From the NCBI GenBank assembly GCA_016187465.1, contig JACPJQ010000005.1:163183-227182 (forward strand): a DNA stretch of 64,000 bases, in the 5' to 3' direction. Numbering within the stretch: position 1 is the first letter of the stretch; each line of letters begins with the position of its first letter. The position numbers were made by a program, and so were the translations under genes. Below, in pieces: positions 27,984 to 64,000 of the stretch. The notes beneath the pieces were generated by a model. The model saw only the letters and a list, made by a program, of their open reading frames with translations, was not told the origin of the DNA and did not search any database. The stretch is from Candidatus Woesearchaeota archaeon. Its GTDB lineage: Archaea > Nanobdellota > Nanobdellia > Woesearchaeales > GW2011-AR4.

Positions 27984-28144
27984 TTTCGTTCCAGTAGTAA
28001 AAAGCGCGAAAATCATCAGTTTAATGTATAAATTGGGAGGCTTCGCGATATGGCAGAAAAGCGAAGCCGAGCACTAAAACTTGCCGAAGGCGTATTGAGA
28101 TATTAATTTAGAGGTAAGAAGTTATAAAATAAAGAGGTTTGAAA

Positions 28145-34329: not shown

Positions 34330-36084
34330 ATGCCCAGACTAAATCTGTCAAAAAACGCATTGCTGATACTTGAGCAGCGCTACTTAAAAAGAGACAAAAA
34401 AGGCAAAGTGATTGAAAAGCCAGAAGAGTTGTTCAGGAGAGTAGCTAAAAATTTAGCCCAATCAGATGCAAATTATAAGCATAGCAAAAACAATGTTAAA
34501 AGGACAGAACAGGAATTCTACAATTTGATGGCTTCTTTGGATTTTCTGCCGAATTCTCCGACTTTACTAAATGCAGGAAGAAAACTGCAGCAGCTGGCAG
34601 CATGTTTTGTGCTCCCTATTGAAGATGACATAAGCTCAATATTCAAGACGCTGCATGACTCTGCACTGATTCACAGGACAGGGGCAGGCACTGGCTTCAA
34701 TTTCTCAAAGCTAAGGCCGAAAGGCGACATTATAGAAAGCGCTGGATTCACCTCAGGTCCCGTGTCATTCATGAAGATTTTTGACGCGGCGACAGAGCAG
34801 ATAAAGCTTGGCGGAAATTTAAGAGGGGCCAACATGGGCATTTTAAATATTGACCATCCTGACATTGAAGAGTTTATAAGAGTCAAGAGCAGGGAAAATG
34901 TATTGACAAATTTCAATGTTTCAGTTGCGATAACTGGCAATTTCATGGAAGCTGTGAACAATAACAAAGATTACAGTCTGGTAAGCCCGCGCACAAAAAA
35001 AAATGTGAAAAAAGAAAGCGCAAGAAGGATATTCGGGCTGATTTGCGAGCAGGCATGGCTGAATGGTGACCCCGGAGTCATATTTATAGATAGGATTAAT
35101 GAATTCAATCCGACTCCAAAGCTTGGAGTGATAGAATCTACAGACAGTTGCGGCGAGCAGCCATTATTGCCTTATGAGTCGTGCAATCTTGGAAGCGTTA
35201 ACTTATCAAATATGGTTAAAAATAAAAGGATAGATTTTGAGAAATTAAAAAAGACAATCCACACAGCAATCCATTTTCTTGATAATGTGATTGATATGTG
35301 CAGCTATCCTTTGGAAGAAAACAGAAAAATTGTTGATAAAAACAGGAAGATTGGACTTGGAATAATGGGGTTCGCGGATATGTTGGTTAAGCTGGACATT
35401 GCTTATGATTCTGAAGAGGGCTTGAAAAAAGCGGAAGAGGTTATGAAATTCATTTCAAAGGAAGCTGATAAAGCATCAGCAGAACTTGTAGAAAAAAGAG
35501 GCGCATTTCCTTCTTGGGCAATAAGCATTTACAACGACAAAAGTAAAGGAGAGAGGCTAAGGAATGCAACAAGAACAACAATTGCTCCAACCGGCACAAT
35601 CAGCATAATTGCAGATGTATCAAGCGGCATAGAGCCTTTGTTTGCATTAAGCTATTCCAGAAGAACTTTGGAGGGCAAAACACTGGTTTATTTTGACAAG
35701 AACCTGAAGAGGGCATTGATGGAGAACAGGTTGTATAATGATGAGATTATAGAAAGAATAACAAGAGAAGGCTCGATAAAGAACATCGAAGAAATACCTG
35801 AAGAAATAAGAAAGATATTCGTTGTAGGCTCCGACATAGCGCCTGAGTGGCATGTGAGAATGCAGGCCGCCTTCCAGAAATACGTCGATAATGGAATATC
35901 AAAAACAGTAACATTGCCCAAAGACGCAACTGTCGAGGACGTTGAAAAGATATTTTTGATGGCTTTCGAGCTTGGCTGCAAGGGAATTTCTGTATACAGG
36001 TACGGCTCCAGGGAAGGCCAGGTGATTTACTTAAGCTCCAGAAGGGATGAGCAGATTACCTTGAGCAATTTTCTGAAGAAGTAA
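34330..36084 (+). CDS. nrdJ: Class II (B12-dependent) ribonucleotide reductase, short form without ATP-cone or C-terminal zinc finger
   Basis: 584 aa. NALLILEQRYLKRD, AACFVLPIEDD, TDSCGEQPLLPYESCNLGSVNLS, APTGTISIIADVSSGIEP, CKGISVYRYGS. The protein ends 22 residues after the last motif. Confidence 0.93.
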   Translation: MPRLNLSKNALLILEQRYLKRDKKGKVIEKPEELFRRVAKNLAQSDANYKHSKNNVKRTEQEFYNLMASLDFLPNSPTLLNAGRKLQQLAACFVLPIEDDISSIFKTLHDSALIHRTGAGTGFNFSKLRPKGDIIESAGFTSGPVSFMKIFDAATEQIKLGGNLRGANMGILNIDHPDIEEFIRVKSRENVLTNFNVSVAITGNFMEAVNNNKDYSLVSPRTKKNVKKESARRIFGLICEQAWLNGDPGVIFIDRINEFNPTPKLGVIESTDSCGEQPLLPYESCNLGSVNLSNMVKNKRIDFEKLKKTIHTAIHFLDNVIDMCSYPLEENRKIVDKNRKIGLGIMGFADMLVKLDIAYDSEEGLKKAEEVMKFISKEADKASAELVEKRGAFPSWAISIYNDKSKGERLRNATRTTIAPTGTISIIADVSSGIEPLFALSYSRRTLEGKTLVYFDKNLKRALMENRLYNDEIIERITREGSIKNIEEIPEEIRKIFVVGSDIAPEWHVRMQAAFQKYVDNGISKTVTLPKDATVEDVEKIFLMAFELGCKGISVYRYGSREGQVIYLSSRRDEQITLSNFLKK

Positions 36085-51096: not shown

Positions 51097-51300
51097 ATGG
51101 AAGTATTGACAAAATTAAGGAAGGTAGGTGGATCTGTTATGGCTCGTATCCCAAAAGAGGTGTTGGAGCATGAGTCTTTGCATCCGGGGGAAACTGTTAA
51201 AATAGAAGTAAAAAAAGTGAAAATAAGCGGATTTGGCATATTTAAGGGTATGAGGTCCTTTACAAAAAAAGATGAGTTTAAGGGACAGCTTGAAGAATGA
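51097..51300 (+). CDS. vapB: AbrB/SpoVT-type antitoxin (VapB-like)
   Basis: 67 aa. LRKVGGSVMARIPKEVLEHESLHPGETVKIEV. 4-nt overlap with the PIN gene. Confidence 0.78.
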   Translation: MEVLTKLRKVGGSVMARIPKEVLEHESLHPGETVKIEVKKVKISGFGIFKGMRSFTKKDEFKGQLEE

Positions 51301-51680
51301 AGTACGTTATCGACGCTTATGCTTGGGTAGAATATTTTATCGAAAGTGATAAAGGAAAAAGAGTTAAAGAGATTGTAGAATATGAGGAAAATGAAATTTT
51401 TACTTCTTTAATAACAATTGCAGAAGTTAGCAGTATAGGAACACGAGAAAAAAGAGATGTAGAGCTTGGAAATAAAACCATAACAAATTTATCAAATATT
51501 TACGGAATTAGCATGGAATTTGCAAAAGAAGCTGGAATTTTGCATGCAGAGATAAGAAAAAAAATTAAGGATTTTGGGTTAGCTGACACATTTGTTTTGA
51601 TTACAGCACGTAAATTGGACGCAAAGATTGTTACTGGCGATCCGCATTTTAAAGGGTTTAAAGATGCTATATTAATTTAA
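51297..51680 (+). CDS. vapC: PIN-domain nuclease (VapC)
   Basis: 127 aa. MKYVIDAYAWVEYF, SLITIAEV, GLADTFVLITA, IVTGDPHF. Confidence 0.82.
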   Translation: MKYVIDAYAWVEYFIESDKGKRVKEIVEYEENEIFTSLITIAEVSSIGTREKRDVELGNKTITNLSNIYGISMEFAKEAGILHAEIRKKIKDFGLADTFVLITARKLDAKIVTGDPHFKGFKDAILI

Positions 51681-51858
51681 GCTGGTTTTGGTTGATAGAT
51701 TGGGTGTTTAAATTCTACAAAATTTTGGGTAAATTTTAAATAGTACACACATAATAAAAATACATAAACTACATTTTGAGGTTATTTCATCATTAGGCAG
51801 AAGGATTAGGGTAACAAAAGGATATTGGAATAAGATTATAGAAACAAAGCATGGGATA

Positions 51859-52071
51859 ATGAAAGGCAGGGAAGATCTGGTTAAGGAAACATTAGTAAAT
51901 CCAAATCAAATAAGAAGGAGCAGAAAAGATTCAAATGTTTATTTGCATTATAAACGTGTTAATGGAAAATATAATTGTGTTGTAGCAAAACATTTAAATG
52001 GCGAAGGTTTTATAATTACGACTTATATAACAGATAGGATTAAGGCGGGTGAAGCATATGAAACCAATTAA
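51859..52071 (+). CDS. Second copy of the DUF2283-associated putative toxin; canonical-start version is N-terminally short
   Basis: 70 aa from the first ATG. Homology to the 101-aa paralog continues about 25 codons upstream (GRRIRVTKGYWNKIIETKHGI), where no ATG/GTG/TTG exists. Confidence 0.5.
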   Translation: MKGREDLVKETLVNPNQIRRSRKDSNVYLHYKRVNGKYNCVVAKHLNGEGFIITTYITDRIKAGEAYETN

Positions 52072-52279
52072 GATTTTTTTTGACAAAACAGGGAACACTT
52101 TAAATGTATGGTTTGACGACCCTTCGAAAGAAGCTGTATCTGAAGAAACGTCCGAAGAAGTAATTTTAGTTAAAGACAAGAAAGGCAAAGTTATAGGATT
52201 TGAAGTTCTTAATTACCTGTCATCGACTGATTTGAAAGACTTAAAAAAATTGCCTGTGGAGACGGAGATTTTAGCATGA
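52058..52279 (+). CDS. DUF2283 (YuzE-like) small protein, putative antitoxin
   Basis: MKPIKIFFDKTGNTLNVWFDD....KGKVIGFEVLNY. The track uses GTG 52049; ATG 52058 is more likely. Confidence 0.7.
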   Translation: MKPIKIFFDKTGNTLNVWFDDPSKEAVSEETSEEVILVKDKKGKVIGFEVLNYLSSTDLKDLKKLPVETEILA

Positions 52280-52294: not shown

Positions 52295-53179
52295 CTAAGC
52301 TGGATTTGGTTGTGATGTTGGAGTCACTGCTGTAGCTGTCTTTCTGAACCAGCCACCAACCGCAGAGCCTAAATCATATATCGCAGTTGAAACCTTATTA
52401 TAAACCTTGCCTGCATAACTTGAAATGCCGCTGGTGATGTAAAGCGGATTTGCAAATTTAGGAATGTAAGTTAGAGGATTAAGTAATTTTGCATAGTTCA
52501 AGTTTTCTTTTGATAAGAATATTCTATACAATACGTTTGCCACCCCAATTGCAGGGAACAGGTATGGAGCTAAATATGGCAATGCATATGTTGCACCGAC
52601 TGCCGTAGACAACATTGCAGCTAAGGGTATTGTCCTCATTAAGCCCTTCAAATAATTTTTTTTGAAATCCTCGCCAATGCCCTTAAAGGTTTTATTCTTA
52701 ATTAGGTAATCTATTGGATAATAAAGCGCTGTTATTGCCGGGGATAAAGCGCCAAGGAACAAGCCTCCGACAATAAAGGGGCTTACTGGAACAGAATAGC
52801 CGAGAATGTTTGCAACAACATTTTCCAAGCCCAGTGCCTTTGGAAGCTGTTTGGCTGCTTCAACTCCAAGCAAAATCGGCGGTGTTATTAATGCGCCAAC
52901 TATTGACTCATCTCTGAAATGCCTGCTTGTAAATTGTTTTTTTGATTCATCTTTCTCAGCCATCAGCCTTTTTTCTATCATTCCGCCGTATGGAAATGAT
53001 AAAGCAGTGATGAAGCCGTCCAATCCAAACAAAGCAGCAAAAGCGCCTATTGCAGCAGTGCCTATTGCTGAGTTTATCAAACCCCTGCTCGCTTGATTAG
53101 TTTCTGTAATTACACTATCTAATGTAGTCTTCTCTCTCTCCTTTTCTTGAGGTTTCTGCTCTTCTAGATTATCTGCCAT
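52295..53179 (-). CDS. Polytopic membrane protein (294 aa), paralog of 53314-54183
   Basis: Acidic N-terminus, then Gly/Ala-rich hydrophobic segments. It shares the block YP.DYLIKN.TFKG.G...K.NY with its neighbour. Confidence 0.75.
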   Translation of the reverse strand: MADNLEEQKPQEKEREKTTLDSVITETNQASRGLINSAIGTAAIGAFAALFGLDGFITALSFPYGGMIEKRLMAEKDESKKQFTSRHFRDESIVGALITPPILLGVEAAKQLPKALGLENVVANILGYSVPVSPFIVGGLFLGALSPAITALYYPIDYLIKNKTFKGIGEDFKKNYLKGLMRTIPLAAMLSTAVGATYALPYLAPYLFPAIGVANVLYRIFLSKENLNYAKLLNPLTYIPKFANPLYITSGISSYAGKVYNKVSTAIYDLGSAVGGWFRKTATAVTPTSQPNPA

Positions 53180-53312
53180 TTTCTTCCTCTAACAATTTTT
53201 TAACAGCATATTCAACAAAATGACTTTTATTCCTGAATTTCCCGCTTCCAATAGTCTTCAGAATATCCAAGACTGATTCTTCGTCCATTGTGATGCTAAG
53301 TTTGTGCTTCAT
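53169..53312 (-). CDS. Ribbon-helix-helix small protein (47 aa), copy 1
   Basis: Below the track cut-off. My translation is MKHKLSITMDEESVLDILKTIGSGKFRNKSHFVEYAVKKLLEEENGR*. Its stop overlaps the ATG of the 294-aa gene. Confidence 0.6.
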   Translation of the reverse strand: MKHKLSITMDEESVLDILKTIGSGKFRNKSHFVEYAVKKLLEEENGR

Positions 53313-53313
53313 T

Positions 53314-54183
53314 TTAACGCGCTCCTTGCGCCGCTGCCTGTGCGTTTGTTGGAGTTTCAGTTTTTGTCGGCGCTGATTTGTAGAAACCGCTGCCTATTTC
53401 GTAGAGTGCTTTTAATGGATTGTAAACTAATTTGTTGACCGCTTCATAAGCGAGCCTTCCAGCTACTCTGGGCGCTGCAACATAGTAAGGAGTCTTGTCT
53501 CTTTTCTCATCTTCCTGTAACTCACCTTTTTTAGGGGCTCCAAATAAATCAAACAAATAGGTTAATCCTGCTGCTATCGGAACATTCAAAATCGTAGGTG
53601 CGAAAAATACATTTAATAGACTGATTGGTAAAAGATAAGTCCATGCTTTCTTTAAAGTAGGCCAATAATTTTCCTTTATGTATTTTCCAAGACCCTTAAA
53701 AGTTCTGTTTTTTATTAGATAATCCGCGGCTTGATAGAATCCTACATAGGCTGGATAAGCAAAACCGCCCCACACCGCAGCTTTGCCCAAATAACCTAGA
53801 GCACTATCCAACGGAACTTTATGAGCGAGCTTGAACATATAATGAAGAGGTGCTGCAAGTGCCGTACCCATAATAGCTGACTCTAAAACATTTCCAGCCA
53901 TATACTTCTTACTCTTCTTAAGATTAATTGTGGCATCAGCTGCAACTTGGGCTCCTGCCATGATTGCTGTGTCTCTTGCTAAGATTGGATTCCCAAATGA
54001 TTGGGCGGTTAATGCCTGAGCTGTTGGAATTCCTACAGCCAAGCCAAGTTTTATCAAATTCCCAGCTGCATGAATTGTTTCATTCACCACACTCTCCAAA
54101 GCCCCAACTGGCTTTTTCTCTTCCTTTTTCTCTTCATGCGGAGCAGTCTTTGCCGCCTGCTCTAAAGGTGAAGCTTCAGCCAT
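53314..54183 (-). CDS. Polytopic membrane protein (289 aa from ATG 54183), paralog of 52295-53179
   Basis: MAEASPLEQAAKTAPHEEKKEEKK, then Gly/Ala-rich hydrophobic segments, with DYLIKNRTFKGLGKYIKENYWP. The track start at 54195 is a TTG. Confidence 0.75.
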   Translation of the reverse strand: MAEASPLEQAAKTAPHEEKKEEKKPVGALESVVNETIHAAGNLIKLGLAVGIPTAQALTAQSFGNPILARDTAIMAGAQVAADATINLKKSKKYMAGNVLESAIMGTALAAPLHYMFKLAHKVPLDSALGYLGKAAVWGGFAYPAYVGFYQAADYLIKNRTFKGLGKYIKENYWPTLKKAWTYLLPISLLNVFFAPTILNVPIAAGLTYLFDLFGAPKKGELQEDEKRDKTPYYVAAPRVAGRLAYEAVNKLVYNPLKALYEIGSGFYKSAPTKTETPTNAQAAAQGAR

Positions 54184-54316
54184 CTTGCTCCTCAAGGAGT
54201 TTCTTGACAGCGTACTCTACGACATGGCTTTTGTTGCGAAACTTGCCGCTAGAAAGAGCTCTCATTATTTCGTGCACTAAGTTTTCGTCTAGAGTCACAC
54301 TTAATTTGTGCTTCAT
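54176..54316 (-). CDS. Ribbon-helix-helix small protein (46 aa), copy 2
   Basis: My translation is MKHKLSVTLDENLVHEIMRALSSGKFRNKSHVVEYAVKKLLEEQDG*. Its stop overlaps the downstream ATG (ATGGCTGA). Confidence 0.6.
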   Translation of the reverse strand: MKHKLSVTLDENLVHEIMRALSSGKFRNKSHVVEYAVKKLLEEQDG

Positions 54317-54481: not shown

Positions 54482-55003
54482 ATGATTATTTCAAACAGCT
54501 CGCCGCTAATACTTTTGGCAAAGATAAACAAGCTGAATTTGCTGGAAAAGATGTATAATAAGATAGCAATACCCTACGAGGTTTATAACGAGGTTGTTAT
54601 TAAAGGAAAAAATGAAAATTATAGCGATGCTGCGCTTGTTGAAAAGGATATAAATGAATTTATTTTTGTTAAAGACTTGAATTCAGAAAGTAAGAAGGAG
54701 GCTGAAAAATTAAAGAAAATTTTAGGCTCAGGCGAAAGCGAAGCCATTGCATTATGTGTGCAGGAAAAAGCCAGGTTGCTGCTTATAGATAACTTGGAGC
54801 CTAGAAAAATTGCGCAGATAAAGTCTATAAAATGCAGAAGCACTCCGGGAATATTGCTTGAAGCCCTCAAGAATAAAACAACAACATTCAGCGAATATGA
54901 ATCAGCAATCAAGGAATTGTCAAAATACGCATGGCTGTCTGGCGACATAGTTGCGCATTTTTTAGATGCGGGTTATAAAATCAAGCAAGGTGAAATAAAA
55001 TGA
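54482..55003 (+). CDS. PIN-like DUF3368 protein (toxin candidate)
   Basis: 173 aa. IISNSSPLILLAKINKLNLLEKMYNKIAIPYEVYNEV and GSGESEAIAL are typical of DUF3368. Confidence 0.72.
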   Translation: MIISNSSPLILLAKINKLNLLEKMYNKIAIPYEVYNEVVIKGKNENYSDAALVEKDINEFIFVKDLNSESKKEAEKLKKILGSGESEAIALCVQEKARLLLIDNLEPRKIAQIKSIKCRSTPGILLEALKNKTTTFSEYESAIKELSKYAWLSGDIVAHFLDAGYKIKQGEIK

Positions 55004-55305
55004 AATTGGGTAGAGTAAGTATAACAGTTCCGAGGGAGATATTGGAAAAATCTGATAGGATTGCACAAGAAAAGCTGGAAGACAGGTCAACTGTGATGAG
55101 GGAACTATTGGCTTTAGGGCTGGAGCGTTACATGACACAAGAGGCTTTGAAGCAATACAGTGAAGGTAAGATTTCGATGGAGAAGGCTTCGGAAATGGCT
55201 AACGTGTCTATCTGGAAATTTTTGGATGTGCTTAAGGAAAGAAAAATCCCCATAAGATACGACTTGGAGGACATAAAAAAGGAAATAGGGGAGATTATTG
55301 GATAA
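55000..55305 (+). CDS. UPF0175-family antitoxin with N-terminal RHH-like segment
   Basis: 101 aa. GKISMEKASEMANVSIWKFLDVLKERKIPIRY is the UPF0175 signature. 4-nt overlap with the DUF3368 gene. Confidence 0.75.
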   Translation: MKLGRVSITVPREILEKSDRIAQEKLEDRSTVMRELLALGLERYMTQEALKQYSEGKISMEKASEMANVSIWKFLDVLKERKIPIRYDLEDIKKEIGEIIG

Positions 55306-55331
55306 AAAAGAAATGCAAAAGGTAGAACAAC

Positions 55332-55628
55332 ATGGGAATGTTTGATAGTGTAATAGCGGATTTTAAGTGCCCTTATTGCGAATATGGATTAACAAAAGAA
55401 GAGATTGAGAGCACAATTGAAGAAAAAGATGAAACTTGGCAGACTAAAGCTACGCTTAAACTGCTGGACATATACAAAATTGGAGACGAGCCAAAATTTG
55501 GAAAGGTAAAGATAAATGAAGGTTGGATGGAGATCCATCATGTTTGCCCAAAATGCAATAAGTTTGTACAAGCGGAAATAGAAATGAAAAATGGCAGATT
55601 AAGTAATAATTTTAGATACATAAAATAA
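55332..55628 (+). CDS. Zinc-ribbon hypothetical protein (98 aa)
   Basis: CPYC near the N-terminus and CPKC near the C-terminus. Confidence 0.55.
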   Translation: MGMFDSVIADFKCPYCEYGLTKEEIESTIEEKDETWQTKATLKLLDIYKIGDEPKFGKVKINEGWMEIHHVCPKCNKFVQAEIEMKNGRLSNNFRYIK

Positions 55629-55888
55629 GGCACGGCATAAATCAATCGAACATGTAAATATCAATTCTAAAATATTTTGTAAACAATAATCATATTAACC
55701 AATTACTCTTTTATACCAAAAAATATATATACCAATTAGTAAACTAATAAGTAAACACAAAGCTTAAATATCACTTCTATACAATTTGGAATATTAAATT
55801 AAAAAATATATACCAAAAAGTATAAATATGATAAATCGAAATGTTTTTATATTATAGGTATATATTCCGATTGGTATAGGGAGTTAGC

Positions 55889-57025
55889 TTGGCCAGAAAA
55901 GAGGCAGTCATTAGAAGAGGTTATTACCTTGATTTGCTAGATAAAAATACGAATTCTTTCAAGAAAGGCTCTGCAAAGCATATCGCTATTCTTGGCTCAA
56001 GGAAATCCGGCAAGACATCAATTGTTAGGGAGCATGTAAAAAATGTCAAAGACATAATTCCGGTTTATATTGACCTTGGGAAAATAAGCTTAAACCCAGA
56101 AAATTTTTCAGTTGAATTCATTGGCAATGTCATTTTCCATTTCCTGAAAAGGCCCTTAAAAGAATATAAAAATTTTTTATTGCTTGAGCATCTGCTTAAA
56201 ATTGAAATAAGCAAAAACGCTTCTTCTCTTATAAAAACTGTTGAGAATGAATTATTGAAAATCAAGCCTGACCAAAGATTGCTTGTTGAAAGCGCTTTCA
56301 GGTTTGCAGAAGAGTTGGGCAAGGAAAATAACAAAAGATTCCTTATTGTTCTGGACAATTTTGAGAATATTCTCGATTTAAACAACTTCTCGCAGATTAA
56401 AGATGTTATTTCAATTATCAATTTCGATGCTGAAAATGTAAGCTACATTGCAGCAAGCTCTGCCGTAAAGCAAATGCTTGCCTTGAAAAAATTTGAATGC
56501 TATGAAATAAAGAATCTTGACAAGAATGAAGCGGCAGAACTGGTAAGATCAATTATAGAAAAAGCCGAGCAAAAAACGATTGATGAAATATTCCTGTTAA
56601 GCAGCGGTAATCCGTTTGTCACAATATCAATATCCAAAAAATATAATGAAACTAAAGATGTTAAAAAAGCGTTTCTTATAGAGCTTCTGCAAAAAAATAA
56701 CTCAATCTATGATTATTGCAGTGATTCATTTAATTACTATTATAACAGGGCCCGGGGCCAGACTCTTCTCAAAACAATCCTGAAAGTTATTGCAAACAAA
56801 GAGCTAAGGCTGAGCGAGATTGCAAAGCGCATTTACAGAAGCGCTCCAGTTACAAAAAGCATTATTGAAAGGCTGATGGAAGTTGACATAATCTACAAGA
56901 AAGACAATAAGTTCTATTTCAGCGATAATACATTGCGCCTTTGGCTGAAATTAACTTCTCACGGTTACGAGTTTGATGAGCTTCCTGATGATAAAATACT
57001 TGATGAGGTTATAAAAGAATTATGA
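55889..57025 (+). CDS. Arch_ATPase/DUF234-type P-loop NTPase with C-terminal winged HTH
   Basis: 378 aa, TTG start after GGGAG. Walker A AILGSRKSGKTSIV, Walker B RFLIVLDNFENI. C-terminal LRLSEIAKRIYRSAPVTKSIIERLMEVDIIYKKDNKFYF. Confidence 0.82.
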   Translation: MARKEAVIRRGYYLDLLDKNTNSFKKGSAKHIAILGSRKSGKTSIVREHVKNVKDIIPVYIDLGKISLNPENFSVEFIGNVIFHFLKRPLKEYKNFLLLEHLLKIEISKNASSLIKTVENELLKIKPDQRLLVESAFRFAEELGKENNKRFLIVLDNFENILDLNNFSQIKDVISIINFDAENVSYIAASSAVKQMLALKKFECYEIKNLDKNEAAELVRSIIEKAEQKTIDEIFLLSSGNPFVTISISKKYNETKDVKKAFLIELLQKNNSIYDYCSDSFNYYYNRARGQTLLKTILKVIANKELRLSEIAKRIYRSAPVTKSIIERLMEVDIIYKKDNKFYFSDNTLRLWLKLTSHGYEFDELPDDKILDEVIKEL

Positions 57026-59598
57026 GCAAGAATAAGTTAACTTGGATTATTGTATTGTTTTTGATAAGTGTATTAACATTGCCAATAGCTTATGCGCAGG
57101 AATTTAAGGGGAGTAAATTATTTTTTGTCTTAATCAATGCAGCGATTATTTTTATTGTATTGTTTTTATTGCAGTCATTTTTAGTCCCTGGAAAAACCGA
57201 CAAGGAAAAGACTTCTGTCTGGGTGATAATGATACTTGCGTCCCTGCTGCTTGGATACTTCTTTGGGCAGAATGGATTCCTGTGGGAAGGGCCGTTAAAG
57301 TGGATATTCAACATTTTTGTATTGGTAAATTCAATGATAATAGCAGCAGTGTTGTATTTTGTGCTTGGATTGTTAAAAATACAGAATCTGCAGTCTACAG
57401 AAGGAAAAACTGGCTACGGCATTTTGATATTCTTATTTTCAGTGATGATTGCGATTAACATAGCCCCTGATAAGTTCATATGGAATGAAGAATTTGTAAG
57501 AAGCTCGTTTGCATTCTTGTTTTCACCAGAAAGAGGCATTCTAAATCCAAAGAGCGGACTGCTGGTTTTTGTAACCAGCTTTATTTTGATAGCTTTCTTC
57601 TTCAATCAATTCTTGTTGAAACAAGGAGACAAAAAACTGAATTACGCATTAGCTCTTGTATTCGCAGTTAATCTTGCAATGCCTCCTGTAAATCCAATTA
57701 AAGATGTGGTCCAAATGGGAGAAATTATATTTATCTTGATTGTATGGGAGACTCTAAAAACCACTGTTCCTCAAGACAAGCCATGGGCTGCTTTCCTGCT
57801 TTCAATTTTATTAGTAGGATGGGCATCAGCTGCGCTTACAATAAACACTCCGGAAAACAGGGGCGCTGTTGCACAAATGATATGCCACACTGGATTTGTC
57901 AACTGCAAAGAATTAGCTGGCACGGCTGCTGCAAACGGCGGGTTTTTGGGAATGTCAAAAATGACCTTGATATTGATACTTATCGCATTAGCTATCTTCT
58001 GGCCATTTGGGGGCGAAAAAGGCAAGAAATTAAGCGGATGGGGAATCGGCATAGGATTGGTTGGCTTGATTCTGCTTTACATGTGGAGTTCAGGAGTCGG
58101 AGTTATAGGAAAGATTGGATTGGGGATTGCGCTACTCGTAGCAATTATCGCAGCGATTTTGTATTTCATGGGCAGATGTGAAACCATAAAAAGAATTTTG
58201 ACTTTGGGCGTAGCTGGGGCTAAAGAAAGAATAAATGCCATAATTAAAAATGCTAAGTTTTTGAGAGAATCCCCTGAAGGCAGAGAACCACAAGTTTTCA
58301 GAGAAAATAGAATATTATTCCACATGCTTGCAAACTTTACAACAAGGTCAGAAATAACTTACAGGTATTGGGGTTTTGTTGAGCAGGCAAAAAGAGTAGG
58401 AACTCAAGTACTAAATAAAATGGGCGTATTCACATACGATCAAAAAACCCTTAGACAAGACATAATCAAAGCGAGGAGTGGTGGTGTTACAAGTCAAGGT
58501 GCACACTTAGACGGTTGGAATAAATTAAACATAGAAGTAGTTGATTTAGTAAATTCGTATTTTGAACTGACATTCTGGGTTTATGTATCTGCCTTGTTTA
58601 ACTTTAAGGATAAAACTGCTGGAAATTTTAAATCTGAAATTAATGAATACAATAGGAGTATATCAACGTCTGCCCTCAATATTGAACAAAAAATAGAAAC
58701 TTCAAGAACAAATTATAACCTAATGACTAATGCTTTTGGTGGACATCATGTGCTAAATGCTTACAAAGGTATAATATTGAATATGACTAATGTAACTGGT
58801 GACGTGCTTGAGCATTATCAAAAATTTGCAAGATCAAGTGCAGAATTTGAAGGTAATCCGCGAGGTAGGGATATTGGCTTTTATGGTCCAAGTTTCAAAG
58901 CAGAAGGTCGAAGAGACCCTCAAACTGGAATAATTTTGCCAATTCATGAAGTAAATCAGTTTGGAGAGTACATACAAGACATTACAGATCAAAGAGATAA
59001 ATTTGGTAATTTACCAGATCCTAGAGATTATAAAAAGCCAAGGAAAGTAAAGCCAGAAGACATTATAGATTATCCAGATTACACTACTCTTATGGCAAAT
59101 GTAGAGTTAGATTGGAAGGGTTTAGCAGAAGACATAAGATACGGGTTATGGCATCCAGAAAGTAGAACTTTTCAGATGTATAAACAAGCTTTGGGTAAAG
59201 CTATTTACCCTGAATGGGCTGATGAGCAAATACCCATCCTGGGACCAACTGGCAGGATAGAAAGTTCCCCAAGTACAGGAGATGAAGCATTTGATATGCG
59301 TGCTTTAGCAAATCCCGGCTTACACCCTTATTGGGGAAGAAAAACATTTGATGCAGAATCACCCCCAAGTAAAAATGATCCATTTCATAATCCATTCCCG
59401 GGAGTTTCCTCATTAGGTCTTGCGAAATATTTAGAAGAACGTGTAGGGCTTGATATGAAAGACAAGGCAAAAGCACAAGAGTTTATGAATAAATATCATA
59501 GAGATTCAGCAGCTCCAAAAAAGGTAACTGTTAAAGGGGAAGTAAAAGTAAAAATAGGCACTCGCCTAGGATTAACACAAAAAGAAACCCAAGGGTGA
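57022..59598 (+). CDS. 858-aa polytopic membrane protein with large C-terminal soluble domain, no recognisable family
   Basis: ATGA overlap with the NTPase gene. Signal-like MSKNKLTWIIVLFLISVLTLPIAYA/QEF, at least 10 hydrophobic segments up to about residue 420, then about 430 hydrophilic residues with no motif I recognise. Confidence 0.8.
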   Translation: MSKNKLTWIIVLFLISVLTLPIAYAQEFKGSKLFFVLINAAIIFIVLFLLQSFLVPGKTDKEKTSVWVIMILASLLLGYFFGQNGFLWEGPLKWIFNIFVLVNSMIIAAVLYFVLGLLKIQNLQSTEGKTGYGILIFLFSVMIAINIAPDKFIWNEEFVRSSFAFLFSPERGILNPKSGLLVFVTSFILIAFFFNQFLLKQGDKKLNYALALVFAVNLAMPPVNPIKDVVQMGEIIFILIVWETLKTTVPQDKPWAAFLLSILLVGWASAALTINTPENRGAVAQMICHTGFVNCKELAGTAAANGGFLGMSKMTLILILIALAIFWPFGGEKGKKLSGWGIGIGLVGLILLYMWSSGVGVIGKIGLGIALLVAIIAAILYFMGRCETIKRILTLGVAGAKERINAIIKNAKFLRESPEGREPQVFRENRILFHMLANFTTRSEITYRYWGFVEQAKRVGTQVLNKMGVFTYDQKTLRQDIIKARSGGVTSQGAHLDGWNKLNIEVVDLVNSYFELTFWVYVSALFNFKDKTAGNFKSEINEYNRSISTSALNIEQKIETSRTNYNLMTNAFGGHHVLNAYKGIILNMTNVTGDVLEHYQKFARSSAEFEGNPRGRDIGFYGPSFKAEGRRDPQTGIILPIHEVNQFGEYIQDITDQRDKFGNLPDPRDYKKPRKVKPEDIIDYPDYTTLMANVELDWKGLAEDIRYGLWHPESRTFQMYKQALGKAIYPEWADEQIPILGPTGRIESSPSTGDEAFDMRALANPGLHPYWGRKTFDAESPPSKNDPFHNPFPGVSSLGLAKYLEERVGLDMKDKAKAQEFMNKYHRDSAAPKKVTVKGEVKVKIGTRLGLTQKETQG

Positions 59599-61388
59599 AG
59601 AAAATAGCAGAACAAACTAATACAGTAACAGAAAAAAACCCTGAAAAGGGCACAGGGCAATTAAGCAAAATAGGTAGGGCATTAAATATTTTTAATATAA
59701 TTACTCCTCTTACAGATTCGATTGAGAGGATAGTTGAAATAAAAGAAAAATATCAAGTTATGCTATACGAACCTGAATTTTTATTCAAGTACAGAAAAGA
59801 TTTAGTAGTATTTTTAATTGCTTTTAGATTGTATAATGATTATAGGTTGTCAAAGCCAATAAAACTAGGTGAGGTCAAAAATAATATCGAAAAAATAAGA
59901 TTGTATGATATAGAATTAGCTGAAAATATTGAAAGGATATTTCCCCTTGTTGAAAAAGAAACTAGAATTTTTTCAGATTTGCTTGATGCTCTTAGAAATG
60001 GAAAGGAATATTTTGTTTCTTACATATCAACACACTTAACAGAATTAATTGCAAAAGCAAAATCGATTAATGACGAAAAATTATCAAAGCAATTTGTTAT
60101 TTTGTTTTCTTCAATAAGTGGTCATGAGGTTGAGTACCTAATAAGGTATAGAAATGATTGTGATAATTGGCCAAATTATGCTATAGCAAACAGTATAGAC
60201 TTTTTCATAAGAAGGGTTAATTTGTTCTTAAAAGGTGGATTAGATAATAACATACAATTTATGGGGTTATATAAAGACTTTGGAGATGTAGAATTAACAC
60301 AAAAAATACTAAGCGATAACGCAGTGAGAAACTTATGGCGTTATATTGAGCAAATGAGGTACATAAATACCTTAATTGGTTTATGTAAGGAATCAGAAGT
60401 GAGTGGAAAATGGGAAGGATTTTTCGGGAATGATGGATTCTGGGGCAGGGAAGGGGACGCAAAAGGAAAAAATTTTGATAATTATGCTGATGAATTCGGA
60501 AAAAAGTATGGAAATTCTGATTTTGCAGAATATTTAAAATTACAAAAATTACAAATTGGCGAAAACCCAGAAGCATGGGGTGGAGAATGGAAAGATAATG
60601 TTTTAGTAAAAGACGGAGTCTTACCACAATTATTGAGAAAACTTCAACATCCCTCATATCAAAGACAAAAGAGTATATTTCCAGCTTCTTTAGCGTTACA
60701 TAGGATTTTGAAAGAGAGAGAAGATGAACTAAAAGCAAAAAGAGACAAATTTGTAGATGGACTTATTAAGCTATTGCAAGAAGCAGAAGGCATTGGTATT
60801 GCGAGAGAAAAACTCATTAAAAAATTATCTAGGTTGTTAAAGAAGAAAAAGATAGTCTTGCTTAAAGAATTAAATAAAGATATGGCGGAATTTGTAAGCA
60901 AAATTAAACTCCAATTTGTTGATTATGCCACTCTTTCAGAAGAGCAAGACAAAATTCTCGACAAGATGACTGCTTATTATATAGGAAATGTAACAGGCAG
61001 GCTTGTTGCTGCTGCAAAAAAACAACTTGCTTATGAACAACAGCAACTTTCTACAGGTCAATTTTTAAGAAAAGGGGACATTCGCGGACTTGCATTCATA
61101 GATGTAGCTGATAAATTAGCTAAAGATTTAAAAGCTAAAAAACTACAATATGAAAGATTTGAGCATGTAAGCGATGAAGATTTTGCATATCTTCAAAACT
61201 CGATTTCAAAACTTAGAGGAATAGTAAAAGAAATCGGTGGCATTTATGATTATACGAGATTTAAACTTGGACAGAGGTATATAATAAAATTTGAAGATTT
61301 TGAAGTATTACAATTTGATTATAATAGGATAAAAAACATACATTTTGAATTCGGATATGTTAAGAAAATGATTGACAGATTAATTTAA
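59595..61388 (+). CDS. 597-aa soluble ORFan, predicted largely helical
   Basis: GTG start overlapping the upstream stop (GTGA). Lys/Glu/Leu-rich with no P-loop or metal motif seen. Confidence 0.75.
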   Translation: MKKIAEQTNTVTEKNPEKGTGQLSKIGRALNIFNIITPLTDSIERIVEIKEKYQVMLYEPEFLFKYRKDLVVFLIAFRLYNDYRLSKPIKLGEVKNNIEKIRLYDIELAENIERIFPLVEKETRIFSDLLDALRNGKEYFVSYISTHLTELIAKAKSINDEKLSKQFVILFSSISGHEVEYLIRYRNDCDNWPNYAIANSIDFFIRRVNLFLKGGLDNNIQFMGLYKDFGDVELTQKILSDNAVRNLWRYIEQMRYINTLIGLCKESEVSGKWEGFFGNDGFWGREGDAKGKNFDNYADEFGKKYGNSDFAEYLKLQKLQIGENPEAWGGEWKDNVLVKDGVLPQLLRKLQHPSYQRQKSIFPASLALHRILKEREDELKAKRDKFVDGLIKLLQEAEGIGIAREKLIKKLSRLLKKKKIVLLKELNKDMAEFVSKIKLQFVDYATLSEEQDKILDKMTAYYIGNVTGRLVAAAKKQLAYEQQQLSTGQFLRKGDIRGLAFIDVADKLAKDLKAKKLQYERFEHVSDEDFAYLQNSISKLRGIVKEIGGIYDYTRFKLGQRYIIKFEDFEVLQFDYNRIKNIHFEFGYVKKMIDRLI

Positions 61389-61404
61389 TTTGAGGTGAGA
61401 GGAG

Positions 61405-63669
61405 ATGGTTGAGCCAAATCAACAACAGCAAACTGAAGAACCTAAATTTCAATTGTTTAAGCCTTCAGAATGGCCTGGATTTGCATGGAATTGGTTTTGG
61501 AGACTTCCTGGCATAAGAAGATTTAGAGTTGGCAGAGCAAAAGTTGGTGAGAGATATCCACAAATATTGTATGATCTACGTAAAACATGGTTCCCAAAAA
61601 ATAAGTCTTGGTTTGAGACTAAGCTGGAAACAATTGAAGAATTTTGGAAGGTAATGGGAAACTTCTATGGAGATGGGAATGACGAAACTGATGAGTCTAG
61701 CTTACTTGGTAACCCAGATGGAATTGTAAGGTTTTATCAAGATTTGGGTGTCTACTCAGATATAGAGAGAGTTAGAATTGAAGCTAATTGGTTCCAAGTT
61801 GGAACTGGTTATGCGCTAGAAAATATTACAACGAATCTGCCCAACGACCCAAATTTTTGGGCTAGATTTGGATGGAACAAAAGAGAAAATATAATTGAAG
61901 TGATAAACAACCCTGAACGCTTAAAAAGTTTACTAATTGAAAGGGTAAGACTATCCCATGGAACTGTCCACCACGAAGGAAAAAAGGAATATGAAGAAGA
62001 ACTTTATTGTTTTGGATTTCCAAACGCCGAACAATTAGCAAATAGAATTAATAAGTATAATGATAACATGGAGAGAATAATGCTGGACCTAGGCATCGAC
62101 GCAGATTTAAGAGGTGCGAAAACTAGAGCAGCAGGTGTACTTCAGCATTTAATAAATAAAATTGCTGAAATAGAAAAGGAAACTTTCGTTTATCTATCTG
62201 GGGAAGAAGGGAAAAGTGGATTAAGTGGTAAAATTACCACATACCAACAAAAGTGGGAAGATTTGGTAAATAAGTTAAGTCCAGAATCTAAAAAAATTGG
62301 AGTTATAAGATTTTCACATACTTATAGAATAATAAAACAATATAATACATTAGAGATTGAGGAAAGGATAACAATAAGAAATAGGATAGTGATGGACGAA
62401 GAAGGAAACGCTATAAGAGAATCCACTAAAAAAAGAAAAGTGACGATGAAATTAAAACAGGATAAGGACATCTATAAAGAAGAAGAGGATGAATTAAACG
62501 AAAAGATTAAGGAATTAAAAAAAGATTTAAACCAAAATCGAATACCTATAGAACAGATAGAACGGTATAATTTAAGAATGAAGATGTATGAACAAAGGTT
62601 AGATGATATAAAGAATATAATCAATAAGGCTGATATAATACGCCAAACTATACCAAAAGTAAATCGAAATGATTTTTGGCAAAGATCTGAAGAATTAGGA
62701 TTTGGCTTAGACGAGAATGGTTATCCACTTGAAATAGATCCAAAGACTGGAGAAGTGTTAATTGATGGATGGTGGAGTGAAATAGCTCAAAATGAATGGC
62801 AACTTAAAACAATAGCAAGTAAGCCTGGAGGTTTAGAATATTTAAAAAAACATTTAGATGGTTTTGAAGCAAGAATCGGTGGGCCTCGTGGTAAACCAGA
62901 AGTTGAGATTGTAAACAATGGTTCAAGACTTATAAGGTATCTAAAAGATGAACGATTTTATGGATATGTAGATTTATTAGAATTGGGACATATAATTTTT
63001 AGTGACTGGGATTCTTTCAGAGATGATTTAAGGGATGGAAGATTCCATCCACACTCAAAAAGTGCAGGAGATTATGTAATAGAAGCTATGGGTAATTTTG
63101 ACGAACAACTTGGAGCGCCTTACTTTAAGGGTTGGTATTTAGCCAGGAGTAAAGGCATTGGTGGAATAAGAAGAAGGGGGGTTATACCTTTAGGTACTAC
63201 TGGTATATACGCAAACGTTGCAGATAAGAATGTGTTGACAAAGGCTAGACCCGACAAGGAATTCTTAGGTATAAATTTTAATAAAGTGCCTAAAGAAGAA
63301 AGAGCTATAACACGAAACTACAAAATGAGAATGCCAGATGGTAGTTTTATTGAAGGGGAAAGAAAACCAACTAAGTACAATCCAGCATTCGATAGACGTG
63401 CCGAAAATTTGGATTATGTGTACTGGGGAAGAATGTACTGGTATGAGTGGATTAGTGCTGTGGGCAGATGGTCAGAAAACCCATTTCCACACATAACAAC
63501 AAGAGGAATTGCATTATATATTGCGCATCTTGTAGCTACAGATGTCTGGAATTATAAAGACGCCGAAGATGCTTTAGAAGGTCATAAATTTGATTATGGC
63601 GTTAGAGGCCAAGGGGAGTATGGTTATGTGAACCCATTAAGCGGTAAAGGCATTTTACAAGAAAACTGA
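61405..63669 (+). CDS. 754-aa ORFan with Trp/Arg-rich N-terminus and central charged coiled-coil-like segment
   Basis: ATG preceded by GAGGTGAGAGGAG. N-terminal WPGFAWNWFWRLPGIRRFRVGR, central KEEEDELNEKIKELKKDLNQNRIPIEQIERYNLRMKMYEQRLDD. No recognisable catalytic motif. Confidence 0.78.
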   Translation: MVEPNQQQQTEEPKFQLFKPSEWPGFAWNWFWRLPGIRRFRVGRAKVGERYPQILYDLRKTWFPKNKSWFETKLETIEEFWKVMGNFYGDGNDETDESSLLGNPDGIVRFYQDLGVYSDIERVRIEANWFQVGTGYALENITTNLPNDPNFWARFGWNKRENIIEVINNPERLKSLLIERVRLSHGTVHHEGKKEYEEELYCFGFPNAEQLANRINKYNDNMERIMLDLGIDADLRGAKTRAAGVLQHLINKIAEIEKETFVYLSGEEGKSGLSGKITTYQQKWEDLVNKLSPESKKIGVIRFSHTYRIIKQYNTLEIEERITIRNRIVMDEEGNAIRESTKKRKVTMKLKQDKDIYKEEEDELNEKIKELKKDLNQNRIPIEQIERYNLRMKMYEQRLDDIKNIINKADIIRQTIPKVNRNDFWQRSEELGFGLDENGYPLEIDPKTGEVLIDGWWSEIAQNEWQLKTIASKPGGLEYLKKHLDGFEARIGGPRGKPEVEIVNNGSRLIRYLKDERFYGYVDLLELGHIIFSDWDSFRDDLRDGRFHPHSKSAGDYVIEAMGNFDEQLGAPYFKGWYLARSKGIGGIRRRGVIPLGTTGIYANVADKNVLTKARPDKEFLGINFNKVPKEERAITRNYKMRMPDGSFIEGERKPTKYNPAFDRRAENLDYVYWGRMYWYEWISAVGRWSENPFPHITTRGIALYIAHLVATDVWNYKDAEDALEGHKFDYGVRGQGEYGYVNPLSGKGILQEN

Positions 63670-63820
63670 TTTTTGCATTTGAAGATTACTCCCAAAAACC
63701 CCCACTCCCAACCCCTGCCCTTGCTGAAATGATAACATCCTAACTTTGATGTCTGGCATCATTAAACTTAAAGACAAGCGATAATTATTTAAAAAACGGT
63801 CATATTATTGCTAATTTATC

Positions 63821-64000
63821 ATGAAAGAAGAAGTAAGGAGATGGATGAAGCAGGCTCAGGAAGATTATGAAACTGCAAAATTTAATTTTGATGGAAAGAA
63901 ATATAAGTCCGCAGCTTTTTGGTGCCAACAATCTGCAGAAAAAGCGTTTAAAGCATTGCTAATAAAGAAAACAAATGAATTCCCTAGGATTCATGATTTG
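63821..64000 (+). CDS. HEPN-domain protein (N-terminal part; continues beyond the right edge)
   Basis: MKEEVRRWMKQAQEDYETAKFNFDGKKYKSAAFWCQQSAEKAFKALLIKK is the typical first two helices of HEPN proteins from HEPN/nucleotidyltransferase TA pairs. Confidence 0.65.
   Translation, partial: MKEEVRRWMKQAQEDYETAKFNFDGKKYKSAAFWCQQSAEKAFKALLIKKTNEFPRIHDL

Follow-up and report, generated by a model that had tools for sequence, protein, structure and literature searches.

What kind of system is encoded by four tightly packed genes when only the first of their products can be classified? The question is raised by an operon, whose genes are named here g1 to g4, found in a 64,000-nucleotide (nt) stretch of DNA from Candidatus Woesearchaeota archaeon (contig JACPJQ010000005.1 of assembly GCA_016187465.1, positions 163,183 to 227,182). 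This whole stretch is referred to as the window. An earlier note, made by a model from the letters of the window, had described the operon, and the four open reading frames (ORFs) that it listed were recovered at exactly the same coordinates. The junctions were also read again in the sequence: ATGA between g1 and g2 (57022-57025), GTGA between g2 and g3 (59595-59598), and a 16-nt spacer with a Shine-Dalgarno-like sequence ahead of g4. The 4-nt overlap of g1 and g2 was found again in every orthologous locus and is, therefore, not due to chance; the operon is genuinely translationally coupled and its gene order is kept wherever it is visible. A fixed stoichiometry of the products, as proposed in that note, may follow from this coupling. 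Homologous loci (L001-L063) were found using either g4 or g1 as the anchor and were annotated with hidden Markov models built from our own alignments. Their comparison showed that the locus is a mosaic. A core, which consists of a set of palindromic boxes in the promoter, g1 and the transmembrane (TM) domain of g2, is combined with a cassette, which consists of the predicted cytoplasmic domain of g2, g3 and g4 and is replaced as a unit.

Replacement of the cassette as a unit

A recent exchange is apparent when the window is aligned with its closest relative, L023. The two loci share 69-83% of their nucleotides in the promoter, in g1 and at the beginning of g2 (55.6-57.5 kb). Between about 58.27 kb and the stop codon of g4, this identity is 93-100%, with most values at 95-99%, and past that codon it collapses. 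Synonymous divergence (dS) is 2.4 for g1 and 0.12, 0.05 and 0.11 for the C-terminal part of g2, g3 and g4, respectively. The g2 gene of L023 appears split into two pieces (689 and 168 amino acids, aa), a break that coincides with a run of N at about 6608-6632 and represents an assembly gap, not gene fission. The earlier note had judged by eye that the DNA becomes more AT-rich from about 58.4 kb on, and the computed values agreed. The GC content is 0.339 at 58400-63669 versus 0.376 in the whole window, and the GC content at third codon positions (GC3) is 0.22 in g3 and 0.25 in g4 versus 0.39 +/- 0.07 for 31 background ORFs. The shift lies at this point because the exchanged cassette starts at about 58.27 kb. 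The codon usage of the operon genes is inside the background range. In other genomes, the GC3 of g3 and g4 equals that of their own flanks, and the values found in the window are nearer those of L023. Therefore, import of the cassette into the lineage of the window is favoured.

Discontinuities of the same kind were found in other pairs of loci. Between L037 and L044, g1 is 90% identical at the amino acid level (dS 0.78), the TM gene is 85% identical (dS 0.93) and dS is 0.41 in the 65 codons that open the gene for the soluble domain; beyond them, the cassettes share 25-27% amino acid identity and their synonymous sites are saturated. The comparison of L032 with L036 revealed a cassette that is younger than the core (dS 0.33-0.88, the value for g4 being 0.33, versus 1.33 for g1). 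L013 and L037 have in common g1 and the divergent genes located upstream of it, termed up genes, and differ in the TM domain. Cassette classes that are only about 20% identical occur in organisms with 90% identical g1 proteins, and two alleles, those of L037 and L043, coexist in a single metagenome (Ga0209542). When all 435 pairs of 30 non-redundant operons were considered, the identity of g1 was poorly correlated with that of the cassette (rho 0.07-0.32), whereas the identities of the C-terminal domain of g2 (g2C), g3 and g4 were mutually correlated (rho 0.68-0.71). The breakpoints in two pairs, window/L023 and L037/L044, cluster at residues ~416-455 of g2. This boundary is the same at which g2 is divided into separate genes for the TM and soluble domains in 13 of the 30 operons, with L005, L019, L020 and L024 among the genuine splits. 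The possibility that the discordance was an artefact of g1 identity that saturates under constraint was considered and rejected, as the dS values show true discontinuities.

Putative regulator, membrane anchor and shared module

The earlier note regarded g1 as the only classifiable product, a P-loop NTPase with a winged helix, and the profile searches led to the same view. Judged from these searches and its motifs, g1 is a P-loop NTPase of a divergent AAA+/STAND-like type that has a winged helix in its C-terminal part (residues ~288-347). The two motifs quoted in that note, the Walker A GSRKSGKT (residues 36-43) and LIVLDNF, which is part of LIVLDNFE (residues 152-159), are present and conserved. 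The Walker A consensus among the orthologs is G[SP]R[KR][SC]GKT, and the conserved Asp of Walker B is followed by Asn (LDNFE, not the canonical DE) with an invariant Glu at position +3. The matches to P-loop families in 12 orthologs are all below threshold: AAA_14 in 12 of them, AAA_16 in 10, DUF815 in nine, and ATPase_2 (PF01637) in six at E<=0.1, with a best value of 1.3e-5. The g1 protein of the window scores 20.3 bits against ATPase_2 (E 5e-4), short of the gathering threshold of 33.2 bits, so its description as an "Arch_ATPase-type" protein holds only as a sub-threshold resemblance. The winged helix matches models of the HTH_45, Cmi2_C, MarR and TrmB types, likewise below threshold. Among the PADLOC models, mad8, which belongs to the MADS system, was weakly matched (E 3e-5, 21.7 bits). 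The family profile of g1 found no relative among Protein Data Bank (PDB) sequences. No Orc1/Cdc6 model appeared in the NCBIfam and Pfam output, in which AAA_22 was sub-threshold in four of the 12 orthologs. Matches to secretion and conjugation ATPases (EccC/FtsK of the type VII secretion system, VirB4/HerA, and those of the type IV pilus or archaellum) were of P-loop length only (FtsK_SpoIIIE, E 0.13; EccCb, E 0.3), and no pilin, PilC or FlaJ-like match was found in the proteins of the locus with Pfam and NCBIfam. The g1 gene is under very strong purifying selection, with a ratio of nonsynonymous to synonymous divergence (dN/dS) of 0.047 between the window and L023. In most of 11 loci compared, g1 is 62-80% identical to that of the window while g2-g4 are 21-57% identical; across most lineages, the identity of g1 is 62-90%.

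About 250 bp upstream of g1 are conserved as DNA throughout the 12 aligned loci, some of which have g2-g4 with no more than 20-30% identity. The promoters carry three to five palindromic boxes with the sequence TATACCAAnnAGTATA. Five of them are found within 167 bp in the window, where 0.62 would be expected per 64 kb, and matches with at most one mismatch number 28 in 3.2 kb of DNA upstream of g1 versus one in 255 kb elsewhere. A structured RNA was rejected as the cause of this conservation (RNAalifold -1.6 kcal/mol, no covariation). The lack of RNA structure and covariation argues, therefore, that what is conserved is protein-binding DNA. One of the conserved elements, TTTTTATATTA, would act as the archaeal TATA box. 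The obvious candidate to bind the boxes is g1, which may thus be an autoregulator. The sole operator-like match outside the promoter, TATAGCAAACAGTATA, with one mismatch, lies inside g3 (60182-60197, + strand), within the exchanged cassette, and is probably due to chance.

The signal-like N-terminus and at least 10 TM segments attributed to g2 in the earlier note were found, the number of segments being 11: nine strong helices detected by hydropathy and two weaker ones taken from the AlphaFold2 model. The signal-like peptide spans residues 1-26 and has an invariant LPIAYA/Q site, and the TM part contains the invariant polar residues N39, Q51 and N103. In the junction motif that follows the last TM helix, R442 is invariant and P423 nearly so. 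The model of g2 has a predicted local distance difference test score (pLDDT) of 76 overall and of about 85-92 for residues 420-850. The extracellular loops are short. All Lys/Arg-rich loops and the soluble domain are on one side of the membrane and, because of the positive-inside rule, the soluble domain is predicted to be cytoplasmic. The same location is predicted for g3 and g4, neither of which has a TM segment or a signal peptide.

The g3 proteins have a conserved Trp/Gly-rich centre, GFWG...KYGN.DFA...IGENPEGWGG.W, and are unrelated to the g2 and g4 families (hhalign probability <2%); the g3 slot was never empty in the operons examined. In g4, a conserved N-terminal amphipathic Trp/Arg helix (residues ~20-45) is followed by an alpha/beta N-domain, a coiled coil (~330-420) whose length differs by hundreds of residues among homologs, and a highly conserved C-terminal domain. 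The model of the whole g4 has a pLDDT of 77 and a predicted template modelling score of 0.69. The C-termini of g2 and g4 are homologous (hhalign 98.6%, E 1.3e-15, 156 columns). The module they share is about 170 aa long. It occupies residues ~668-845 of g2 (nt 59023-59556) and residues ~505-754 of g4 (nt 62917-63666), where an insertion of about 100 aa parts its two halves. It is recognized by the motifs R..(D/E)W...D.R.G..HP.S(R/K)...Y and AFD.(R/E)A...YWG(R/K)..Y...NP.P..S..G. When 1.84 billion proteins were searched with a profile of the module, 334 representatives were retrieved, of which 288 had E<=1e-10. The module is always C-terminal, and all carriers named by their source are Woesearchaeota. 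In the 10 carriers that were the longest or the most divergent, it is not fused to any known domain according to Pfam and NCBIfam. This module and the mosaicism of the cassette, neither of which appears in the earlier note, are the most informative features of the locus.

The view that g3 and g4 are ORFans does not strictly hold, since they have 17 and 21 homologous clusters, respectively, and the module is present in 334 proteins. Nonetheless, all searches placed g2-g4 outside any described family or fold. No family match was obtained in Pfam, NCBIfam, PADLOC or PHROGs, and the family profiles of g2, g3 and g4, like those of g1 and the up genes, detected only coiled-coil or P-loop noise among PDB sequences. 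With Foldseek, for which E<=1e-3 to PDB or BFVD was taken as a fold match, the best values for the models of g2 and g4 were 0.54 (g4 against PDB), 0.42 (g2 against PDB) and 0.17 (g2 against BFVD), with query template modelling scores <=0.13. A scan of 2.9 million viral contigs (IMG/VR) with the g4 profile produced no relative.

Distribution and surroundings of the locus

The order g1-g2-g3-g4 was observed in all 21 metagenome loci with a g1 of at least 50% identity and enough downstream DNA, and in about 12 loci found with the g4 anchor. The four-gene order is thus conserved in archaeal metagenome assemblies, at about 33 independent loci. Each of these loci has g1 with its 4-nt overlap, then g2 as one gene or two, an ORF at the place of g3 and a module-bearing g4. 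Among the loci with at least 50% g1 identity and sufficient room, g1 was never found without g2-g4. All homologs named by their sources are 'Candidatus Woesearchaeota' or 'Nanoarchaeia', and the operon appears to be restricted to part of Woesearchaeota. Six loci (L007, L010, L012, L016, L020 and L021) come from metagenome-assembled genomes (MAGs), GTDB representatives, that are titled 'uncultured Methanosarcinales archaeon' despite carrying a Woesearchaeota-type operon; the titles are probably placeholders or wrong taxonomy. Two of these loci, L010 and L012, belong to one MAG and have two different copies of g4. More distant relatives of g1 (34-39% identity) are followed by an overlapping polytopic membrane protein and large ORFs that the profiles did not recognize (L057, 871-8192; L061, 7577-14350; L063, 9935-13802). 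A wider superfamily of operons composed of g1, a membrane protein and large partners may exist.

The system extends beyond the limits of 55889-63669 initially assigned to the operon, since the promoter with its operators (55712-55879) and the divergently oriented up genes (52295-54195) are parts of it. One to three up genes of 260-330 aa are located divergently upstream of g1 in 25 of the 29 loci with room for them (L002, L004, L005, L008, L011, L013 and L023-L059 are among the loci that have them), and nowhere else in these loci. The up genes belong to the conserved locus. They are highly variable, nearly independently of g1 and the cassette, with which their covariation is weak (rho 0.22 for the cassette). 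The up2 protein matches PF04117 (Mpv17/PMP22) with an E value of 1.6e-5 and 25.3 bits, the cut-off being 27, and eight of 21 family members do so at E<=0.01 (best 2.2e-6), all below threshold. No relative was found among PDB sequences with the up-family profile. The L023 ortholog is flagged as Mpv17/PMP22 in its precomputed annotation, and homology of the up family to these proteins is plausible on the strength of such matches.

Table 1. Positions of the genes, domains and DNA elements of the locus in the window
Feature	Position	Strand	Description
up1	52295-53179	-	294 aa, Mpv17/PMP22-like family paralog, divergent from the operon
up2	53314-54195	-	293 aa, up-family paralog; 56% identical to the L004 ortholog
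Inserted cargo	54482-55628	+	PIN-like/UPF0175 toxin-antitoxin pair and 98-aa zinc-ribbon ORF; UPF0175 E 2.5e-15
Distal boxes	55712-55743	+	Two adjacent TATACCAAnnAGTATA copies, one mismatch each
Inverted operator-like box	55778-55793	-	Two mismatches; in conserved block after second TATA-like element AAGCTTAAATAT
Central box TATACCAAAAAGTATA	55809-55824	+	Perfect match; TATAC core invariant in 12 loci
TATA-like element TTTTTATATTA	55844-55854	+	Conserved columns; ~35-45 nt ahead of the start codon
Proximal box GGTATATATTCCGATTGGTATAG	55857-55879	+	Between the TATA-like element and the TTG start; most conserved block of the alignment
g1	55889-57025	+	378 aa, TTG start
g2	57022-59598	+	858 aa
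g2 N-terminal part	57022-58176	+	Signal-like peptide and 11 TM helices; conserved membrane anchor
g2 cytoplasmic domain (predicted)	58177-59598	+	~470 aa; long helical hairpins and alpha/beta region ending in the shared module
g2 junction motif	58264-58371	+	Residues ~415-450, PEGREPQVFRENR..L..N..TRSEI.YR, after the last TM helix
Recently exchanged block	58270-63650	+	g2 cytoplasmic domain, g3 and g4; window versus L023
g3	59595-61388	+	597 aa, GTG start
g3-g4 spacer TTTGAGGTGAGAGGAG	61389-61404	+	16 nt, Shine-Dalgarno-like GAGGTGA ahead of g4
g4	61405-63669	+	754 aa, ATG start
Oligo-T run	63670-63674	+	Immediately 3' of the g4 stop codon (sequence); possible archaeal terminator

The flanking UPF0175 toxin-antitoxin (TA) pair and HEPN gene mentioned in the earlier note were confirmed (for HEPN, located downstream of the operon, E 1.7e-18). 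The segment that contains the former is an insertion and not a member of the system. Only in the genome of the window does it split the up genes from the promoter, while in most other loci the up genes are close to g1. At the corresponding site of L023 there are two PIN pairs, which differ from the pair of the window, and the interval between the up genes and g1 is therefore an insertion hotspot. TA-type genes ring the locus in the window (51297-52279, 54482-55628 and 63821-64000), in L023 (1862-3157) and in L005 (2435-3054). They include PIN genes, a possible DUF4258 (sub-threshold)/DUF2283 pair, the PIN-like/UPF0175 pair and HEPN. The accessory context that had been proposed for the operon, however, applies only to these variable TA genes. 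The locus itself occupies a syntenic chromosomal position across Woesearchaeota and has a g1 gene under the strong purifying selection described above. Its wider flanks recur in several loci, with a trxB-like gene upstream (that of the window is 86% identical to one in a Woesearchaeota MAG) and proC/A/B, PAC2 and DUF192 genes downstream. No integrase, tRNA or terminal repeat was found at the locus. No integrase adjoins it in L001-L006, the one in L001 being about 9 kb away, past the pro genes.

The window is ordinary chromosomal DNA that includes two ribonucleotide reductase genes, aminoacyl-tRNA synthetases and an M17 peptidase; tRNA and Rfam scans of its 64 kb detected no tRNA and no Rfam match. 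The two ribonucleotide reductase genes code for large subunits (28139-31135 and 34330-36084, both on the + strand). The product of the first one, 998 aa long, has an ATP-cone, and its barrel domain was matched in two separate stretches; therefore, it may hold an intein or another insertion. A 630-aa protein (25172-27064, - strand) has a Schlafen group 3/DUF2075-type helicase domain (E 6e-104); helicases of this type are often tied to defence. A 516-aa protein (9581-11131, - strand) with a lytic transglycosylase SLT domain (E 7e-12) could be, going by this domain, a murein hydrolase of bacterial type such as those reported for some DPANN archaea. Two ORFs of 1061 and 711 aa (2330-5515 and 5657-7792, both on the - strand) had no Pfam match at E<=1e-5 and make up a further uncharacterised block in the window.

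Possible roles and relation to known systems

What is firmly supported is a lineage-specific operon with a new shared module, a dedicated operator array, a core with an exchangeable cassette, and predicted cytoplasmic proteins on a membrane anchor. The protein families, their folds and the organization of the locus lie outside every known kind of system. No description of the locus was found in the literature searched, which dealt with PF01637 in archaea, Woesearchaeota protein families, MADS, and cassette recombination in DPANN. The proposal in the earlier note of a dedicated machine rather than a metabolic function fits the architecture of the locus, nothing like which is described in the libraries and literature searched. 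The suggested roles in host contact or envelope remodelling were weakened, since the hydrophilic domain of g2 as well as g3 and g4 are predicted to be cytoplasmic.

We tentatively favour, at somewhat less than an even chance, a Woesearchaeota-specific locus, fixed in the chromosome, for a cytoplasmic protein complex tethered to the membrane, in which a conserved core is combined with an exchangeable specificity cassette, with a role in conflict or recognition. The reasons are the recurrent replacement of the cassette, the deep allelic classes among close relatives and the TA-rich insertion hotspot. In such a locus, g1, as an ATP-binding winged helix protein, would bind the boxes and autoregulate the operon; as the proximal box overlaps the expected transcription start, its occupancy by g1 would be repressive. 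The TM domain of g2 would be the membrane anchor of the complex, and possibly a channel. On this anchor, g2C, g3 and g4 would assemble into one complex, with the paralogous modules of g2 and g4 pairing and the N-terminal amphipathic helix of g4 touching the membrane. The cassette would be the part that determines specificity, by recognizing a variable intracellular partner. The conflict could consist of immunity to viruses or mobile elements, or of exclusion or compatibility, and the membrane domain would be the likely output. A bolder version, less probable than this one, sees in the locus an archaeal system for self/non-self discrimination or immunity that is of a new class. In it, a conserved ATP-dependent winged helix regulator and a membrane anchor or pore would be coupled to a modular recognition cassette that acts inside the cell, is about 1,800 aa in size and consists of new folds, the module shared by g2 and g4 among them. 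The ancient alleles of the cassette would be kept by balancing selection and swapped among Woesearchaeota lineages at the junction motif.

Several observations weigh against a role in conflict or recognition. Selection on the exchanged cassette is purifying (dN/dS 0.18-0.32), and positive selection was not evident. The locus has no domain of a known defence effector, nuclease, protease or toxin, and none of the PADLOC models matches g2-g4. Synteny is fixed, g1 is strongly constrained, and about 7.8 kb are devoted to the operon in a genome that is probably small, while defence systems are typically patchy and mobile; these features fit a core cellular function as well or better. The functions of all these proteins are predicted from sequences and models, as is the cytoplasmic location of g2C, g3 and g4. 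The binding of g1 to the boxes is argued from their co-conservation, and the direction of the transfer between the window and L023 from a modest difference in GC3. The 16 GTDB species in which the family was detected came from a pattern-limited scan, a number that does not gauge its prevalence.

The main rival, which we consider somewhat unlikely, is a housekeeping membrane machine of Woesearchaeota, for remodelling or division, for lipid or membrane uptake, or for tethering DNA to the membrane with g1 as a box-binding, centromere-like ATPase, whose soluble subunits evolve fast, coevolve and occasionally recombine. Besides the purifying selection on g1 and on the cassette and the high identity of g1 in most lineages, it would account for the fixed synteny from the trxB-like gene to proC/A/B, PAC2 and DUF192 and for the constant co-occurrence of g1 with g2-g4. 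The amphipathic helix and long coiled coil of g4 and the membrane-near hairpins of g2 are typical of scaffolds. In addition, repeated boxes beside a gene for an ATPase with a DNA-binding domain resemble partition sites, such as those of SegAB and ParABS. However, replacement of a whole cassette with dS discontinuities, and cassette classes about 20% identical in organisms with 90% identical g1, would be unusual for an essential machine; the family is apparently confined to part of Woesearchaeota; and neither the sequence nor the fold comparisons showed any likeness to FtsZ, ESCRT/Cdv, SMC, ParA, dynamin or BAR proteins. An apparatus for symbiosis or interaction with a host, in which the complex would sit at the contact site and the cassette would set the partner specificity, is improbable. 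Passages of two reports (PMC8204110, PMC9258230) describe DPANN archaea as mostly host-dependent, which together with a large, polymorphic and lineage-specific locus (two alleles of which come from metagenome Ga0209542) would suit this role, and the signal-like N-terminus and conserved polar TM residues of g2 could line a conduit. These features have to be set against the predicted cytoplasmic location of g2C, g3 and g4, which have no signal peptides, the short extracellular loops of g2, and the lack of likeness to adhesins, pilins, S-layer proteins or secretion ATPases.

A resident or relic mobile element or replication module, with g1 as a Rep- or Orc-like initiator, the boxes as iterons or origin boxes, and g2-g4 and the TA genes as cargo, is very improbable. 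An AAA+-like ATPase with a winged helix beside an AT-rich region with three to five repeated boxes, adjoining TA modules and recombinational exchange between lineages would fit such an element. Nevertheless, the matches of g1 are to generic P-loops below threshold and not to Orc1/Cdc6 or Rep, the absence of integrase, tRNA and terminal repeats at the locus and of relatives in the viral contigs speaks against mobility, and divergent lineages share the same flanks. The proximal box, between the TATA element and the start codon, is at the typical position of an operator. No inflection is seen at 55.7 kb in the cumulative GC skew, which increases monotonically between about 28 kb and 64 kb, although skew is a weak test in archaea. 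Finally, the idea that these are not real genes, or that they result from annotation or assembly errors, has nothing but the missing database annotation in its favour and is already refuted by conservation. There are dozens of homologs with conserved motifs, the dN/dS values are 0.05-0.32 with codon usage inside the background range, and the AlphaFold2 models are confident (pLDDT 76-77 overall and about 90 for g2C).

The abundant, uncultured DPANN archaea have mostly hypothetical genes, and their dealings with hosts and viruses are little understood. The signature described here is that of one part of a complex under pressure to change partners, and the locus offers a bounded handle on these organisms, with a defined promoter and operator, a probable regulator, a new module that defines the family, and exchange at a fixed junction. 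If the role in conflict or recognition is true, the biology of archaeal immunity or compatibility would gain a system of a new kind, with new folds; if the housekeeping role is true, the locus would represent a lineage-specific membrane machine in a genome-reduced archaeon.

Among known proteins, the NTPases of the ATPase_2 (PF01637), AAA_14, AAA_16 and DUF815 families are like g1 in their N-terminal P-loop, length and C-terminal winged helix. The winged helix NTPases of the ATPase_2/AAA_14 type, which we take to be COG1672/COG1373-type proteins, belong to families that to our knowledge have no established function. From them g1 differs in that all matches are below the cut-off, in its D-N-F-E Walker B, in lacking DUF234 or DUF4143, and in its own family motif, NELLKIKPDQ, which has no counterpart in them. 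BrxR/CapW-type proteins are winged helix autoregulators of defence or accessory operons. Together with the archaeal MarR/TrmB repressors, they resemble g1 as winged helix proteins at the head of an operon with palindromic operators that overlap the promoter. In g1, however, the winged helix is part of the same protein as a P-loop NTPase, WYL and ligand-binding domains are lacking, and the three to five boxes, to which binding is predicted, extend over about 170 bp. Mpv17/PMP22 proteins (PF04117) are small membrane proteins of peroxisomes and mitochondria, mainly of eukaryotic organelles. The up proteins match their motif region, below or near threshold, over only about 50 residues, and differ by their long charged N-terminus, weak hydrophobic segments and Pro/Ala-rich tails.

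With respect to whole systems, defence operons led by an NTPase (STAND/Avs-like, AAA+-associated and MADS) have the same organization, in which the NTPase gene comes first and is followed by genes for large proteins that include a membrane protein, and the same TA-rich surroundings and variable, horizontally exchanged partners. The locus differs in its fixed synteny and in the absence of a recognizable effector. Furthermore, g1 is the slowest-evolving part and not a sensor, and it is fused to a DNA-binding domain and has its own operator array. Despite the weak mad8 match of g1, no other MADS gene is present at the locus. In PADLOC-DB v2, g2 had no match, g3 and g4 had matches at the level of coiled coils only (E 7e-4 to 0.02), and no complete system was detected. 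Polymorphic toxins, including the contact-dependent inhibition (CDI) and Rhs systems, and tail-fibre cassettes have a conserved N-terminal part, a junction motif, and a variable C-terminus with downstream genes. The locus is alike in its organization into core, junction and cassette and in its coexisting deep allelic classes, by analogy and not by membership. Toxin or immunity domains, Rhs/YD repeats, filamentous haemagglutinin and PT-VENN motifs were not found in g2-g4 or in 10 long module carriers with Pfam and NCBIfam. Unlike polymorphic toxins, all cassettes of the locus are homologous, with the same architecture and module over about 1,800 aa. Moreover, its variable part is predicted to be cytoplasmic, and its conserved part is a polytopic membrane domain with no delivery domain. 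The new class of self/non-self or immunity system, if real, would be comparable in function to tail-fibre and Rhs cassettes or to NLR-type sensors and evolutionarily unrelated to them.

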